Origin: Escherichia phage MN01
Sequence record: MT129652.1
Length of the DNA stretch: 64,000 nt
Direction: 5' to 3' (one strand)
The notes beneath the pieces were generated by a model. That model worked only from the letters and a program-made list of their open reading frames with translations. It did no database searches and was not told the DNA's origin. Position numbers and translations under genes: made by a program. Numbering within the stretch: position 1 is the first letter of the stretch; every line of letters starts with the position of its first letter. Below, one piece after another: positions 8,999-44,778 of the stretch.

Positions 8999-9358
8999 AT
9001 GGTAAGAGTTATCACTTTAGCCATAGGGTTAGTATTCAGCATGGGAGGAATAGCTTCAGTACAGAGCGACGACAACAACAGCATCATAGAATATGCAACG
9101 AGGACGGCTAAAGATTATTGCGCAGCAAGCAATGTGGATTGTGTAATCCAGTTCAGCGCCAAGCTCACCGCAGCCTATAAAGACGGCCAAAATGATGTTG
9201 AACACACGCTTTTGAAAAAGAATGTATTGTCCAACAAATATGAAAAGAAATTATTTGAAATGGATTGCATTCTGTCAAGTGCAAAATATAAGGCGGCCTG
9301 CACCAGTATGGTGGACAGGTTAGTGGATTCATATAATAGAGGATTGAACTCTAAATGA
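8999..9358 (+). CDS. secreted hypothetical protein (vs slot)
   Basis: N-terminal signal-like VITLAIGLVFSMGGIASV; identity by position only. Confidence 0.5.
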   Translation: MVRVITLAIGLVFSMGGIASVQSDDNNSIIEYATRTAKDYCAASNVDCVIQFSAKLTAAYKDGQNDVEHTLLKKNVLSNKYEKKLFEMDCILSSAKYKAACTSMVDRLVDSYNRGLNSK

Positions 9359-9828
9359 TTACCCAGTATATTAAGGGCGATATCGTCGCCCTCTTTCTTC
9401 AAGGCAATATTATTGCACATGGTTGCAACTGCTTCCACACAATGGGTTCTGGCGTAGCTGGACAGTTGGCGAAGGCTTATCCAAAAGTTTTAGAAATAGA
9501 TAAAACCACTACTGAATACGGTTCCAGAGAAAAACTCGGTGATATGTCTATTGTTTTTAAACATAAACCTATTGGGTTTGGTATGTGCTATAATTTGTAC
9601 ACCCAATATGAACCGGGCCCTAATCTTGATTATGGTGCTTTAGTAAATTGTATGATAGAATTAAATCTACAGGCAGAAACCCTTTTGTTTAAACCTGTAA
9701 TTTATATTCCTCGTATTGGTTGTGGTATTGCCGGTGGGGATTGGGAAAAGGTCTCTGTATTAATTGACATGTTTACTCCTGACATTGATTTAATAGTGGT
9801 GGATTATGAGCCAAGCTCGAATTCTTAA
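9355..9828 (+). CDS. macro-domain (ADP-ribose binding/hydrolase) protein
   Basis: IAHGCNCFHTMGSGVAGQLAKAYP and IPRIGCGIAGGDW resemble macro-domain signatures. Confidence 0.6.
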   Translation: MITQYIKGDIVALFLQGNIIAHGCNCFHTMGSGVAGQLAKAYPKVLEIDKTTTEYGSREKLGDMSIVFKHKPIGFGMCYNLYTQYEPGPNLDYGALVNCMIELNLQAETLLFKPVIYIPRIGCGIAGGDWEKVSVLIDMFTPDIDLIVVDYEPSSNS

Positions 9829-11871: not shown

Positions 11872-11899
11872 TATCCCATCAACTACTGAGGAGAACACA

Positions 11900-40629: not shown

Positions 40630-40963
40630 TATCGATTTATCTGATTTAGATAATTTCGAGAAAGATGCGGAGGGAGCTAAGGCTCCTTCTGTACCTTACT
40701 ACGAAAAAAGTTTGGAGATTATCCGGCAATCCATGGGAACTGTACGACAGGAAATTCTGTTATCACTCCCTGATGGGTCCAGTCACATCGTGTACGTAAC
40801 CGGAATTAAAATTGAACCATCTGGAAAAGTTTCAGTTGATTTCGGCACCCCTTCTGAAGACCGCAAAGCGGAGCTTGCAGTGCATGTAGAAAAGTGTGTT
40901 ACAATGCAAATACAAGATGAAATTGATAAGATTAAAATGAAAAAGAGGTGGTGGAAGTGGTAG
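40622..40963 (+). CDS. 40: gp40 (head vertex assembly chaperone, positional)
   Basis: 113 aa between uvsX and 41; ATG 40622 overlaps the uvsX stop. Confidence 0.6.
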   Translation: MNDIDLSDLDNFEKDAEGAKAPSVPYYEKSLEIIRQSMGTVRQEILLSLPDGSSHIVYVTGIKIEPSGKVSVDFGTPSEDRKAELAVHVEKCVTMQIQDEIDKIKMKKRWWKW

Positions 40964-42387
40964 AAACTATTTTATCCCAGCTACTCTTTAACAAGGAATA
41001 TTTTGTTAAAGTCTGGCCATATCTGAATAACACATATTTTGAAAAGGGTCCAGCGAAGACCCTTTTCAATACGATTAACGAACACGTAAAAGAATATCAA
41101 GCGGTACCAACTAAGACTGCACTTGATATCGCGCTCGACAGCTCTGACCTTTCTGAAGTCGAATATGAAGGCACAAAGAAACTCTTAGGAGTCCTGGCCG
41201 ATACTCCAGAAGACCAGGAATGGTTGGTTAAAGAAACCGAGAAGTATGTACAGAAGTCTGCGATGTTCAATGCCACATCCAGGATTATCGAAATTCAGAG
41301 CAATGCCGAACTTCCGAAAGATAAACGTGATAAACGAATCCCGGATATTGGTGCTATCCCTGATATCATGCGGGATGCATTATCTATCTGTTTTGACTCT
41401 GCCCTGGGCCATGACTGGTTAAACGATTACGAAGCTCGATTCCAGACTTATCTGAACAAATCGAAAAAGGTTCCGTTTCGCATTAACATCCTGAATAAAA
41501 TCACGAAGGGTGGAGTTGAGTATGGTACAGAGAACGTTTTACTGGCCGGGACAAACGTCGGGAAATCTCTAGGACTTTGTTCATTAGCCGCTGACTATCT
41601 TCAGACTGGTCATAATGTGCTTTATATAAGCATGGAAATGGCTGAAGAAGTATGTGCCAAACGTATTGATGCCAACTTGCTGGATGTGTCTCTGGATGAT
41701 ATTGATGAAGGTCATATATCATGGGCGGAATATAAAGCTAAGATGGAAAAATGGCGTGCTTCCGGGACTCTTGGGACTCTGAAGATAAAACAATATCCAA
41801 CTGGTGGTGCTCATGCGGATACCTTCCGCGCATTGCTGAATGAATACAAACTGAAGCAGGGGTTTGTACCGGATGTGATTATTGTTGACTACCTGGCAAT
41901 CTGCGCAAGCTCAAGACTGAAAACGTTTACCGAAAATAGTTACGGTCTGATTAAGATGGTTGCAGAAGAACTTCGTGGTCTGGCAGTCGAGAAAAATGTG
42001 GTTCTATGGACCGCGGCGCAGACAACCAGGGGCGCGAACGTTGCAGCTGAGATTGATATGGCTGATATCGCAGAATCCTTTGGTATTGCTCACACGGCTG
42101 ACTTTATGTTGGGTGTTGTTGAGACCGAAGAATTCGCTCAAATGGGGCTGCAGTTAATCAAACAGCTTAAGTCTCGTTATGGCGATAAGAACTACTATAA
42201 TAAATTCAAGATGGGCGTTAAGAAAGGCAATCAGCGCTGGTATGAGGTTGATGATGATTCGGCTCCTAAACAAGGCCCTACGGTTAAAGAAGCCACCGGT
42301 GAGATGAATCGCCAGGCTGAAATGAATAGACAAACCAGGGTCAACAGGAGCGACCTGGACGACCTCGCTGCTCAAATGAAATTTTAA
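40957..42387 (+). CDS. 41: replicative DNA helicase gp41
   Basis: GTG 40957 gives MVETILSQLLFNKEYF aligned to T4 MVEIILSHLIF; GTNVGKS Walker A; 476 aa. Confidence 0.96.
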   Translation: MVETILSQLLFNKEYFVKVWPYLNNTYFEKGPAKTLFNTINEHVKEYQAVPTKTALDIALDSSDLSEVEYEGTKKLLGVLADTPEDQEWLVKETEKYVQKSAMFNATSRIIEIQSNAELPKDKRDKRIPDIGAIPDIMRDALSICFDSALGHDWLNDYEARFQTYLNKSKKVPFRINILNKITKGGVEYGTENVLLAGTNVGKSLGLCSLAADYLQTGHNVLYISMEMAEEVCAKRIDANLLDVSLDDIDEGHISWAEYKAKMEKWRASGTLGTLKIKQYPTGGAHADTFRALLNEYKLKQGFVPDVIIVDYLAICASSRLKTFTENSYGLIKMVAEELRGLAVEKNVVLWTAAQTTRGANVAAEIDMADIAESFGIAHTADFMLGVVETEEFAQMGLQLIKQLKSRYGDKNYYNKFKMGVKKGNQRWYEVDDDSAPKQGPTVKEATGEMNRQAEMNRQTRVNRSDLDDLAAQMKF

Positions 42388-42400
42388 AATATTTTTAAAA

Positions 42401-42435
42401 AAGGGGTGTACAAGCCCCTTGTCTTAGGACATAAT
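42401..42435 (+). promoter_or_regulatory. hairpin-promoter cassette: TGTACA in the loop of AAGGGG/CCCCTT; -10 CATAAT
   Basis: TGTACA 42407-42412, CATAAT 42430-42435; leader GTACTGAGTTACAC. Confidence 0.55.
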
Positions 42436-42485
42436 GATTCCGTACTGAGTTACACAATAAACCAACTGTTAAAAAGGAAAACCAT

Positions 42486-42788
42486 ATGTTTAATCAAACC
42501 GATATGAACCGTTACTATTTTGGTCAGTTCGCTCGCCGTGATGAAAACTGTGCTGCTCTTATCGCATCAGGCATTCAAACTGGTAAATTAATAAAGCTCA
42601 AAAGCGATGTTCAACCTTCATCTGTTCGCAGCTCTCTTCGTGAGTATCTGCTTGCAGGCGGTGAAGTATATGTTATCGCTGAACCTTTTGTTAACGTGTG
42701 TGATGATTACACAATTAGTGTGACTGTTATGCACCCAACTACTGGGAAAATTCGTTGTCTGACTATGCACAACTATGAGTTGGCGTAA
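42486..42788 (+). CDS. hypothetical protein (100 aa)
   Basis: SD AAGGAAA. Confidence 0.55.
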   Translation: MFNQTDMNRYYFGQFARRDENCAALIASGIQTGKLIKLKSDVQPSSVRSSLREYLLAGGEVYVIAEPFVNVCDDYTISVTVMHPTTGKIRCLTMHNYELA

Positions 42789-42795
42789 GTGAACA

Positions 42796-42830
42796 AAGGG
42801 GCTTACAGCCCCTTTTTCTTATGTTATAAT
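42796..42830 (+). promoter_or_regulatory. terminator-promoter fusion: AAGGGGC-TTACA-GCCCCTT plus T-run, loop gives -35 CTTACA, -10 TATAAT
   Basis: Stem 42796-42802/42808-42814; TATAAT 42825-42830. Confidence 0.6.
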
Positions 42831-42856
42831 GACTCTATCAACTACTGGAGAATAAA

Positions 42857-43174
42857 ATGAAAACCATTGATTGCAAGGCAGAATACAAAGTTTATTATCA
42901 TGGGTCAAGCTCTAATGCTGGAATCCAAAATATGCTTTGTCCTCCTGATGCAACTGGTGTTCTGTCAGAAGTTGGACGTAAGAAAAATTTAGGGCGTGTG
43001 TTTTTTACTGAAGATATTGGTTTGGCGCGTATCTATGCAGGAAGAGCAGCTCGCTCATATGGAGGAGAACCCCGTCTTTATCGTGTGATTGCACCGGTTG
43101 ACGTGGTTTGTTTAAATGATACTAAAGGCGCAACAGTTTATCACGCTGCCTGGGCCTTTTGTGAGGAAATCTAA
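42857..43174 (+). CDS. candidate minimal ADP-ribosyltransferase-fold protein (PARP/Arr-like H-[YF]-[ED])
   Basis: YYHGSS, GRVFFTED, EPRLYRVIAP resemble HG[ST] / G[IV]YF[ST] / acidic-strand motifs; 105 aa; not verified. Confidence 0.55.
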   Translation: MKTIDCKAEYKVYYHGSSSNAGIQNMLCPPDATGVLSEVGRKKNLGRVFFTEDIGLARIYAGRAARSYGGEPRLYRVIAPVDVVCLNDTKGATVYHAAWAFCEEI

Positions 43175-43378
43175 ATGTATAAATTAGAGAACGTAGTGTT
43201 TATTGGTTGGTTTGAAAATGGTAATATGTTTACCAAAGAAACCGCCCTGGATGTCAGTGACAAAAATATGATTGAATGGGTTACAGTGCAGTATGCAGAA
43301 GTGAATAATGCGCTGGTTAAAGCCTTTGTTAATGACAATAAAGTTTTTGAATATGATGCCCGCATTGAGGAAATTTAA
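43175..43378 (+). CDS. dmd: Dmd antitoxin (inhibitor of RnlA/LsoA)
   Basis: VVFIGWFENGNMFTKE...QYAEVNNALVKAFVNDNKV matches T4 Dmd. Confidence 0.8.
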   Translation: MYKLENVVFIGWFENGNMFTKETALDVSDKNMIEWVTVQYAEVNNALVKAFVNDNKVFEYDARIEEI

Positions 43379-43618
43379 ATGAATATCGCATTAATGAAAC
43401 CTACCCCTAGTTCTTTTTGGAATAAATCTTTTGGTAAGCATAATATGTTTATCCAACGCACCGTAAGCAGCTGGGAACTAGTTCTTTCAGTCGGCCACAA
43501 TGATTATGAACAAGAATACGTAGAGTTCTTCGATTTTCCTGTGAAACCTACCAAGCGTCAGATTCGTCAGACAAAACGCAAATTCCGCAAAATTTATCTG
43601 GAAGATGCATTAAAATAG
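43379..43618 (+). CDS. hypothetical basic protein (61.4 slot)
   Basis: 79 aa between dmd and sp. Confidence 0.5.
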   Translation: MNIALMKPTPSSFWNKSFGKHNMFIQRTVSSWELVLSVGHNDYEQEYVEFFDFPVKPTKRQIRQTKRKFRKIYLEDALK

Positions 43619-43647
43619 TGTACAACAAAGGGATAATGCTGTATATT
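43619..43647 (+). promoter_or_regulatory. early promoter TGTACA-N17-TATATT
   Basis: Followed by leader CCCTATCAACTACTGAGGAG. Confidence 0.55.
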
Positions 43648-43675
43648 ATCCCTATCAACTACTGAGGAGATTGAA

Positions 43676-43969
43676 ATGAAAAAGTTATTAATCGCGGCAA
43701 TTCTTACCGTAGCATCATGTGGTACAGCTCCAGTTACTGCTGGACTTGATAAAGACCTTTGTGAGTGGTCTATGACTGCCGACCAGACTGATGTTGAACA
43801 TCAGATTTATGCTGATATCATGAACATAACTAAACGTGACCGCCCTGATATGGTTAAAGAAGTATCTGACCAATTGACTTCTGGTGACGTTATGCAGTAT
43901 AACTATGTTCTGTATTGCGATGCTTCATTTGACAATAGCAAAATTGTTCAATGGGTTACAGGTGAATAA
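43676..43969 (+). CDS. sp: Spackle (periplasmic lysozyme inhibitor, superinfection exclusion)
   Basis: 97 aa; signal peptide ending VASC; DKDLCEWSMTADQT..VMQYNYVLYCD as I recall for T4 Sp. Confidence 0.7.
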   Translation: MKKLLIAAILTVASCGTAPVTAGLDKDLCEWSMTADQTDVEHQIYADIMNITKRDRPDMVKEVSDQLTSGDVMQYNYVLYCDASFDNSKIVQWVTGE

Positions 43970-43970
43970 A

Positions 43971-44408
43971 ATGATTAACAGAAATTTAGTTATCAAAAAA
44001 CTTCGCTGTAAAAATCCAAATGCACAGGCATACCGGGTGTTTTGGAGCGATGAAATTCAATACCTGGGTTATTTTCTTGTTGATAGTGATGACAGAATTA
44101 CGTTTGCTCATAAGCTTCTTAACAAAGAATTAAACCATTGGCAAGAACTTATTGCAGTCAAGTCTAAATTATTTTCGCGCAATACAATGCACCAATTGGT
44201 TTATTTTTTCGCTGATGGTATTCCTGACAAGGTTGAATTTGATGGGTTTGAATTTAAAGACATCAACCCTGACAATGAATTGAATGACAGTATTGTTAAT
44301 ATGGGTATCCCAGGTAAGTACATTAAAAACAGTCTTTTGAAACTTCTGGAAACCCCTGTATATTCAGTAGACGACCAAATTTTTAATGCCTTTATGAAGC
44401 GAGATTAA
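43971..44408 (+). CDS. hypothetical protein (145 aa) with DDQIFNAFMKR tail
   Basis: ATG 43971 after the sp stop; ends VDDQIFNAFMKRD. Confidence 0.55.
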   Translation: MINRNLVIKKLRCKNPNAQAYRVFWSDEIQYLGYFLVDSDDRITFAHKLLNKELNHWQELIAVKSKLFSRNTMHQLVYFFADGIPDKVEFDGFEFKDINPDNELNDSIVNMGIPGKYIKNSLLKLLETPVYSVDDQIFNAFMKRD

Positions 44409-44409
44409 T

Positions 44410-44778
44410 ATGTATATTCAAAGCGATTTATCTTATCTGAATTTTGAATTAGTTAAAAATAATGATGGTAATGCTCATTATGAATTCCGTGAACCCAGGT
44501 TTAATCAGGCGATTGGTTATATCATCGTTAAAGATGATGTTATCATAAAGGCTCGCTCATTTATGGTAATGAATGGGCCTTATGAAGATACTCGTGGCTA
44601 TCCATTTGATAAAAAGAATGTACGCGATTGTGCAGCATGGATAACCGGAAACCCTGAAATTGGGGTCATGTTATCTACTGAAGCAAATGACATTCTGGAT
44701 GCTGGCTGGGTTAAAGCTCAAGAACCGCCTACTGATATTGATGACCAGATTTTTAATGCTTTCATGAAGCGAGGTTAA
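44410..44778 (+). CDS. hypothetical protein (122 aa) with DDQIFNAFMKR tail
   Basis: Ends IDDQIFNAFMKRG. Confidence 0.55.
   Translation: MYIQSDLSYLNFELVKNNDGNAHYEFREPRFNQAIGYIIVKDDVIIKARSFMVMNGPYEDTRGYPFDKKNVRDCAAWITGNPEIGVMLSTEANDILDAGWVKAQEPPTDIDDQIFNAFMKRG

Follow-up and report, generated by a model that had tools for sequence, protein, structure and literature searches.

Arr (PF12120; PDB 2HW2, 9IAF and 9IBA) is a small single-domain ADP-ribosyltransferase (ART) found as a resistance cassette, in which the catalytic Asp84 is part of a D-P-N-[VL] motif and rifampicin is bound by residues and motifs of the C-terminus (PMC6092378). Here a likewise small protein of 105 amino acids (aa) from Escherichia phage MN01 (MT129652.1) is described, which is encoded on the forward strand at positions 42857-43174 of the window, that is, the whole stretch of 64,000 nucleotides that was analysed, directly upstream of the antitoxin gene dmd. 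Profile and fold comparison identified it as a protein of minimal size with an ART fold, from a clade related to Arr (phrog_2110). On the evidence of sequence comparison, it is a homologue of the nicotinamide adenine dinucleotide (NAD)-binding two-thirds of Arr and a member of a phage-specific sister clade, and it probably serves as an early effector directed at the host.

To our knowledge, the ARTs known from T4-type phages, the best-studied phage model, all belong to the R-S-E clade; these enzymes (Alt, ModA and ModB) are much larger than the H-type 105-aa protein and have no sequence relation to it, and the latter is predicted to be a fourth, unrelated ART of this phage group. Alt, ModA and ModB are T4-type ADP-ribosyltransferases acting on host proteins early in infection (PMC5512222). 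AcrIF11 (PDB 6KYF), a small stand-alone anti-CRISPR mono-ART of phages and plasmids with a length of ~130 aa, is an enzymatic counter-defence factor (PMC12421852) and, as regards function, offers the best precedent for counter-defence by such a small phage enzyme. Its genomic setting is not alike, however, and no sequence relationship was detected, AcrIF11 being absent from the PDB matches even at expectation values (E) up to 10. ART-PolyVal (PF18760) is another ART domain of phages and conjugative elements, which occurs in polyvalent proteins predicted to be injected; it is a distinct family, found side by side with the 105-aa-type domain in 8 of 54 multidomain polypeptides, and the MN01 protein gave no match to the PF18760 model.

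The ART assignment is not new to annotators, as a few GenBank records carry the label 'putative ADP-ribosyl transferase' or, in one record, 'rifampin ADP-ribosyl transferase'; no publication on the 105-aa family was found in a full-text literature search. Since the fold is already present in annotations, the value of the analysis lies in the function. Identification of the substrate could reveal a new mechanism of counter-defence or host takeover, and would relate an antibiotic-resistance fold to phage weaponry. The protein lends itself to direct testing, being small, carried by a phage of the BASEL collection (Bas46) and provided with a simple H15A control.

Homology to the NAD-binding part of Arr

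Searches with the 105-aa sequence alone retrieved nothing from Pfam (E up to 1), NCBIfam, PADLOC or the PDB sequences, and a profile of the T4-like subgroup had no match in the PDB either; the 121 close homologue clusters are nearly all nameless, and phrog_2110 is a family of unknown function. The link to Arr emerged only once the family had been widened by an exhaustive profile hidden Markov model (HMM) search of 1.8 billion representative proteins, which yielded 246 relatives. When a profile built from 48 diverse members (A2) was run against the PDB, the only matches were 2HW2 and 9IAF (E 1.3e-5) and Arr-2 (E 8.7e-4). When genuine Arr sequences taken from plasmids were used for comparison, hhalign aligned the family profile with a probability of 97.5% and E 5.7e-12, and the T4-like subgroup on its own gave the same register with E 1.2e-4. 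In addition, 30 of the 48 family members matched the Pfam Arr-ms model at E < 0.01 (best E 1.4e-10), several of them above the 25-bit cut-off; in relatives, only positions 1-67 of the 99 in the model are covered. The motif likeness to Arr is, by these sequence comparisons, more than chance.

For the analysis of conservation, the domain was excised from 97 of the 246 relatives and re-aligned, and residues were counted over 98 diverse domains. The original prediction had pointed to three motifs, YYHGSS (residues 13-18), GRVFFTED (46-53) and EPRLYRVIAP (71-80), as resembling the H, [YF] and acidic-strand motifs of PARP- and Arr-type ARTs. All three were located at these residues, and the first two resemblances hold, as H15 corresponds to Arr H19 and F49, the Phe that had been noticed in the place of the canonical Tyr, aligns exactly with Arr Y49. 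The third does not, for EPRLYRVIAP is not the acidic strand and aligns instead with the Arr core strand YIYIVEP.

The landmarks of the protein are H15-G16-S17 on strand β1, the loop E38-x-G-R41-K-K-N, F49 on β2 and Y60 on the following helix. Within the HG[ST] motif, which is aligned to H19-G-T of Arr, none of the 98 domains departs from H15 and G16 or has anything but Ser or Thr at position 17; Y60, a second aromatic residue 11 positions after F49, is equally invariant (98/98), while E38 is kept in 97 domains, F49 in 96, and R41 and T51 in 95 each. The full set of invariant or nearly invariant positions comprises H15, G16, [TS]17, P29, P30, T33, E38, R41, F49, T51, A57, Y60, A61, G69, G70, G91 and A100. 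In register with Arr are the β1 HG[ST], the aromatic residue at the Y49 position, the next helix and the core strand 'hYhVxP'. An E-x-G-R loop is common to the 105-aa family, Arr-ms and Arr-2; E38-x-G-R41 was considered as a universal Arr motif and rejected, since two other genuine Arr proteins are without it. Different from Arr, the family has its own invariant loop S-E-x-G-R-K-K-N-L and the invariant Y60, and it is met as a phage early gene or virion-protein domain instead of a resistance cassette.

The homology extends over the N-terminal ~80 residues. The last aligned position is residue 82 of Arr, before D84-P-N, and D90 of Arr-2, one residue short of the catalytic Asp; no D-P-N motif is found in the 105-aa protein, where L86-N87-D88 occupies its place. 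The rifampicin-binding C-terminus of Arr (~85-143, with an M[RK][DE]xL helix) is absent as well, and the phage protein ends 20 residues after the alignment; with 105 aa versus 136-150 aa, it is indeed smaller than Arr, as had been noted from the sequence alone.

An AlphaFold2 model, computed from an alignment of 37 of the 121 homologue clusters, reached a predicted local distance difference test score (pLDDT) of 87.2 and a predicted template modelling score (pTM) of 0.78, with β1 at residues 13-18, β2 at 48-51, a helix at 54-68 and four strands thereafter. Foldseek comparison with the PDB placed the Arr structures 9iaf and 2hw2 on top (probability 1.00, template modelling (TM) score 0.55-0.61), followed by KptA, and the third-ranking match in BFVD, a library of viral structures, was a siphovirus protein of 94 aa that bears the name 'Rifampin ADP-ribosyl transferase' (34% identity, TM 0.73). 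The split β-sheet core of ARTs is present in the predicted model. A structural comparison of this kind had been put forward as the way to check the original prediction of an ART fold, and an ART fold is what it returned. An ART fold on the H-type side of the superfamily, that of PARP, diphtheria toxin (DT) and Arr, is thus supported by the predicted model.

Phage distribution and deployment

In total, the gene was detected by tblastn in 609 phage records, almost all from Straboviridae, with 592 of the 609 at 60-100% identity and 17 outside this range. The hosts include Escherichia, Klebsiella, Acinetobacter, Aeromonas, Enterobacter and Vibrio, among others, and the records cover Tevenvirinae, Twarogvirinae and Emmerichvirinae. 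Adjacency and translational coupling to dmd are found in Gaprivervirus and Mosigvirus. The gene is located in the 41-61 region of Acinetobacter phage Konradin, near hoc and rnlB in Slopekvirus, 1.4 kilobases (kb) upstream of RNA ligase 2, and near tk and hoc in Aeromonas phage 65, in each case with no dmd beside it. No conserved partner or immunity gene was recognized, the downstream gene varying between genera, and the 64-kb window holds no paralogue of the 105-aa gene. Start-codon annotation of the family is inconsistent across records: in Bas46 the annotated gene begins at an internal codon and has 80 aa, though the 105-aa frame is kept (L008 2501-2818), and the tblastn match in RB43 spans residues 24-105 only.

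The domain is also reused within larger proteins. Among 54 multidomain relatives, it lies inside a tape-measure protein of 3924 aa, and in one case (1/54) it forms part of a portal protein that also contains a phosphoesterase domain of 2H/Acb1-like type. The commonest partner domains are ART-PolyVal (8/54), NUDIX (3/54) and DUF7178 (3/54), further partners being LPD23, ddrB-ParB, GNAT, Toprim and CHAP, and the combination of ART-PolyVal, 105-aa-type domain and NUDIX occurs among these proteins. Such a polyvalent, virion-delivered effector architecture has been described before (PMC5512222 and PMC9503650). An origin from polymorphic toxins was considered and rejected, because none of the 54 proteins carries Rhs, PAAR, LXG or similar domains and the partners are those of phage virions and polyvalent proteins.

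Cellular homologues were limited to two stand-alone genes in metagenome-assembled genomes (MAGs) of Patescibacteria (candidate phyla radiation, CPR), found by low-sensitivity pattern scans of representative genomes. They encode proteins of 143-148 aa with 53-57% identity to the family consensus region (L014 3863-4309 and L015 3884-4315), and their neighbours, a transposase in one MAG, glycoside hydrolases and Clp, are uninformative. Of the close homologues, P0119 (136 aa; L012 6001-6411) is the most divergent; its jumbo-phage-like contig also encodes a fused multisubunit RNA polymerase and, at a distance of 3 kb downstream, a protein with a cREC_REC domain (9186-9482), a family predicted to process ADP-ribose cyclic phosphates (PMC9503650).

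In MN01, the gene is preceded by a promoter-like site on the forward strand, CTTACA-17-TATAAT with an extended TG, at 42802-42830, which is the best of the region (10/12 matches) and overlaps a GC-rich terminator-like hairpin at 42795-42815 (forward strand; 9 pairs, 5 of them GC, and a loop of 3, then a T run) located after the upstream 100-aa open reading frame (ORF). The site is followed by the leader CTATCAACTACTG (42835-42847) and then by a GGAG ribosome-binding site. The ART stop codon TAA (43172-43174) abuts the dmd ATG (43175) without an intervening nucleotide, as had been pointed out previously, and the dmd TAA equally abuts the ATG of a 79-aa ORF (43379). Both TAA-ATG junctions have GAGGAAATYTAAATG in common, by which a Shine-Dalgarno sequence comes to lie within the 3'-terminal codons of the preceding gene; that of dmd, GAGG, lies inside the final ART codons (junction repeat D1). 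A hairpin at 43629-43653, identified by scanning together with the direct repeats D3 and D4, ends the unit. Given the zero-spacer junctions and the promoter-hairpin cassettes, ART-dmd-61.4 is therefore read as one early, translationally coupled unit with the ART gene first, under a predicted early-type promoter.

The two junctions (43162-43181, ART/dmd; 43366-43385, dmd/61.4) were also seen to be near-identical, TGAGGAAATYTAAATG, which gives the ART and Dmd proteins the same C-terminal residues, -EEI. Within the T4-like ART subgroup, E103-E104 may be conserved on account of the dmd ribosome-binding site and not for a role in the protein.

Proposed function and competing explanations

It is considered probable, on the basis of sequence and of the predicted model, that the 105-aa protein is a minimal single-domain, NAD+-binding mono-ART effector from a sister clade of Arr, produced early and aimed at a host target other than rifampicin. 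Under the predicted early promoter, it would be made at the very start of T4-like infection, and in other phages the ART domain would be delivered with the virion. ADP-ribose would then be moved from NAD+ to a host component so as to favour infection, the candidate acceptors being proteins (a toxin or a defence factor), nucleic acids and nucleotides. Catalysis would have to proceed without the canonical third acidic residue, for which H-Y-[I/L] mono-ARTs and PARPs as well as Tpt1, all of which catalyse without it, are the precedents.

A catalyst acting on the host at the start of infection is suggested because the residues of the NAD pocket are kept and the deployment is of the effector type, and modification of rifampicin is unlikely, given that the half of Arr responsible for substrate binding is lacking altogether. 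Conservation in 609 phages and reuse in tape-measure, portal and polyvalent proteins mark the family as a predicted host-directed enzyme that is widely deployed. A putative role in counter-defence is plausible. The original prediction had derived such a role from the position next to dmd, but this inference is weak and suggestive only within a few genera, and the virion-borne and polyvalent occurrence is better indirect support for an effector role than the dmd adjacency. Judged from the sequences, the protein is best seen as an Arr-like ART in truncated form that has an active-site configuration H-F-x and an invariant loop peculiar to the family, and that phages employ as an effector module.

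Several observations weigh against an active effector of this kind. The canonical Tyr of strand 2 is replaced by Phe in 96 of the 98 domains and retained in 2, so that the ring is preserved and the hydroxyl lost. No third catalytic Glu, Asp or Gln could be assigned, since the 98 domains show no invariant acidic residue after residue 70: position 82 is Asp in 31, Glu in 23 and Asn in 8 of them, position 84 is Glu in 54 but Val in the T4-like phages, and position 87 is Asn in 60, Ser in 13 and Gln in 8. With the third acid missing and Tyr changed to Phe, loss of transferase activity with retention of NAD or ADP-ribose binding is therefore possible. The loop between β1 and β2, which contains E38, was modelled less confidently (pLDDT 69 for residues 31-40), the MN01 protein itself matches none of the curated models in Pfam, NCBIfam and PADLOC, Arr-ms (PF12120) included at E up to 1, and the linkage to dmd is lineage-specific, being confined to some Tevenvirinae of E. 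coli.

Two residues were tried as the catalytic acid and rejected. E71 of EPRLY is Glu in only 17/98 domains, and E103 of CEEI is restricted to the T4-like subgroup, in which the codons of E103-E104 double as the dmd Shine-Dalgarno sequence.

The missing conserved acid leaves room for phosphate- or hydroxyl-directed transfer and for a non-catalytic binder. Tpt1/KptA resembles the 105-aa family in its HGT motif and in having no catalytic Glu/Asp, and three of the four residues of the Tpt1 catalytic tetrad, Arg-His-Arg-Arg, lie in the N-terminal lobe. If the chemistry were Tpt1-like, with phosphate as the nucleophile (PMC9503650), the acceptor of ADP-ribose would be a nucleotide or the end of an RNA or DNA molecule, modified at a phosphate or a ribose hydroxyl, and not a protein side chain, and the protein would serve in the repair or capping of RNA ends or in the inactivation of a nucleotide immune signal. 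The absent acid, as in Tpt1, would fit this explanation, and so would the conserved basic cluster R41, K42, K43 and R63, the domains for ADP-ribose derivatives that are fused to relatives or lie near them (NUDIX, 2H/Acb1-like and, on the one jumbo-phage contig, cREC 3 kb away) and the position of the Slopekvirus gene upstream of RNA ligase 2. The NUDIX, 2H and cREC associations are few, however, and R41 is also present in some Arr proteins (EAGR, EDGR), so that it may simply bind NAD+. There is no match to the Pfam PTS_2-RNA model, and hhalign to E. coli KptA gave a negligible probability of 5%, versus 97.5% for Arr. The N-terminal RNA-binding lobe, with the three tetrad residues expected there, is absent from the 105-aa protein, of which only the NAD lobe superposes (75/179 residues). 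Tpt1-like chemistry is therefore regarded as unlikely, although it survives better than the other alternatives.

In a bolder form that we hold to be rather improbable, the family would be the prototype of an acid-independent phage ART clade, whose acceptor is a phosphate or ribose hydroxyl on a nucleic-acid end or second messenger and whose effect is to disable RNA- or signal-based defence. Cleaved or 5'-phosphorylated RNA ends might be capped, for example, or alarm signals made of cyclic nucleotides or ADP-ribose derivatives neutralised, with the NUDIX, 2H or cREC domains that are partners elsewhere processing the ADP-ribose product. Were this so, a new class of enzymatic counter-defence would stand beside Dmd, the inhibitor of RNase toxins.

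A non-catalytic sponge or decoy, the latter already named as an option in the original prediction, would keep the NAD or ADP-ribose pocket without transfer, and would either sequester an NAD-derived immune signal or tie up a host factor able to recognise ART folds. The lack of the third catalytic residue, the change from Tyr to Phe and the very small size of the protein are compatible with this role, and phage sponges for signals derived from ADP-ribose are an established strategy (for example PMC13243611). On the other hand, the invariant HG[ST] together with F49 and Y60 constitutes the signature of catalytic NAD+ binding at the nicotinamide side, the nearest relative, Arr, is an enzyme, and the placement of the domain among enzymes in polyvalent proteins suits a catalyst present in few copies rather than a stoichiometric sponge, which makes a sponge or decoy an improbable explanation.

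A NAD+ glycohydrolase that lowers host NAD+ or yields free ADP-ribose is very unlikely: ART folds without acceptor specificity can be NADases (PMC9503650), but T4-like phages themselves require NAD+, for instance as the substrate of their own ARTs and in reactions of the ligase type, many phages carry NAD+ salvage genes instead, and nothing in the gene context points to NAD depletion. Least likely of all is a genuine Arr that ADP-ribosylates rifamycins or a similar product directed at RNA polymerase and so protects the host transcription needed by the phage, for which the homology to Arr, the one record labelled 'rifampin ADP-ribosyl transferase' and the Arr-family ARTs of actinophages, with speculation on diffusible antiviral compounds (PMC9503650), may be cited, but which is at odds with an alignment that stops before D84-P-N and the rifampicin-binding C-terminal region, with the lack of a DPN or M[RK][DE]xL motif, and with the partial coverage of Arr-ms in the relatives. 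The NAD+-dependent mono-ART effector with a host target other than rifampicin is accordingly retained as the preferred explanation.

Organization of the gene 41-61 region

The genes of the region follow the order uvsX, 40, 41, 100-aa ORF, 105-aa ORF, dmd, 79-aa ORF, sp, two small ORFs and the primase gene 61. The gp41 helicase is encoded on the forward strand at 40948-42387 according to the ORF list. The presence of two extra genes between gene 41 and dmd, claimed from the sequence alone, was confirmed by comparison with Tequatrovirus RB14; the 100-aa and 105-aa ORFs are genuinely extra because in RB14 dmd lies immediately 3' of gene 41. MN01 is a T4-type phage similar to SP18 and RZ (Gaprivervirus group); its 41-61 region shares 96-98% nucleotide identity with TH44, RZ, UPEC01 and SP18, but in separate pieces, so that the region is mosaic.

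The 100-aa orphan ORF (forward strand, 42486-42788) belongs to phrog_17014 (PHROG E 2e-69, full length) and had no match in Pfam, NCBIfam or PADLOC. It forms a single 90% cluster among 5.8 billion proteins and is confined to a few T4-like phages of E. coli and Shigella, with 21 phage records at 95-100% identity. In the interval between gene 41 and this ORF (42388-42485 in MN01; L001 2589-3004 and L002 1589-2003), RZ, UPEC01 and SP18 carry an additional 82-aa ORF, which some records label as goF or as 'RNA metabolism moderator' and which is absent from MN01.

Downstream of the ART gene, dmd (forward strand, 43175-43378; phrog_2102; Pfam Dmd E 1.1e-20) encodes the antitoxin against RnlA/LsoA, and sp (forward strand, 43676-43969; phrog_1586; Pfam T4_Spackle E 1.7e-43) encodes the periplasmic protein spackle; both are ordinary members of the islet. 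The 79-aa ORF between them (forward strand, 43379-43618), previously described as a basic ORF in the 61.4 slot, turned out to be a true gp61.4 homologue with a basic C-terminus (Pfam DUF7279 E 1.1e-19; net charge ~ +6), having 45% identity to the annotated gp61.4 of PP01 and RB14. It gave a weak PADLOC match to a SIR2 model (13.8 bits, E 0.0048), which was treated as noise, probably due to the basic C-terminus. In RZ, 61.4 is missing, whereas in UPEC01 it is replaced by an ORF of 113 aa. Small cassettes thus make up the islet in mosaic fashion.

A hairpin-promoter cassette in front of each extra gene had been proposed, and the hairpins at ~42400-42420 and 42795-42815 do overlap promoter-like sites. 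Upstream of the 100-aa ORF, scanning found an early-type promoter-like site, TGTACA-17-CATAAT, on the forward strand at 42407-42435, with its -35 element in the loop and 3' arm of the GC hairpin at ~42400-42420, just past the gene 41 stop; the sequence of this hairpin also pairs with that of the next one (inverted repeat I1). The hairpin that ends the ART-dmd-61.4 unit likewise overlaps a promoter-like site (43619-43647), and the leader described above recurs at 43652-43664, 5' of sp. All three transcription units open with a GC hairpin overlapping a -35-like GTGTACA or GCTTACA, plus a -10 box. Both kinds of element are enriched in the region, with 14 promoter-like sites versus 5.8 +/- 2.3 in shuffled sequences and 6 terminator-like sites versus 1.2 +/- 1.1.

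The 13-nucleotide leader, C[CT]ATCAACTACTG, has five copies in the window versus 0.08 expected, all on the forward strand, at 11876, 24066, 42835, 43652 and 50284. Every copy lies directly 3' of the -10 box of a GTGTACA/GTTTACA-type promoter and directly 5' of a Shine-Dalgarno sequence and ATG. From its sequence context the leader looks like a conserved cassette of early promoter and 5' untranslated region, which may have been copied along with gene insertions.

Two adjoining ORFs on the forward strand occupy the 61.2 slot, at 43971-44408 (145 aa, phrog_8539) and 44410-44778 (122 aa, phrog_4122). They are dissimilar except for a shared C-terminal peptide, DDQIFNAFMKR[DG], which matches Pfam AdfA (anti-DarT factor A) over its C-terminal 14 positions (E 3.3e-4) and may represent a C-terminal module such as a binding peptide or degron.

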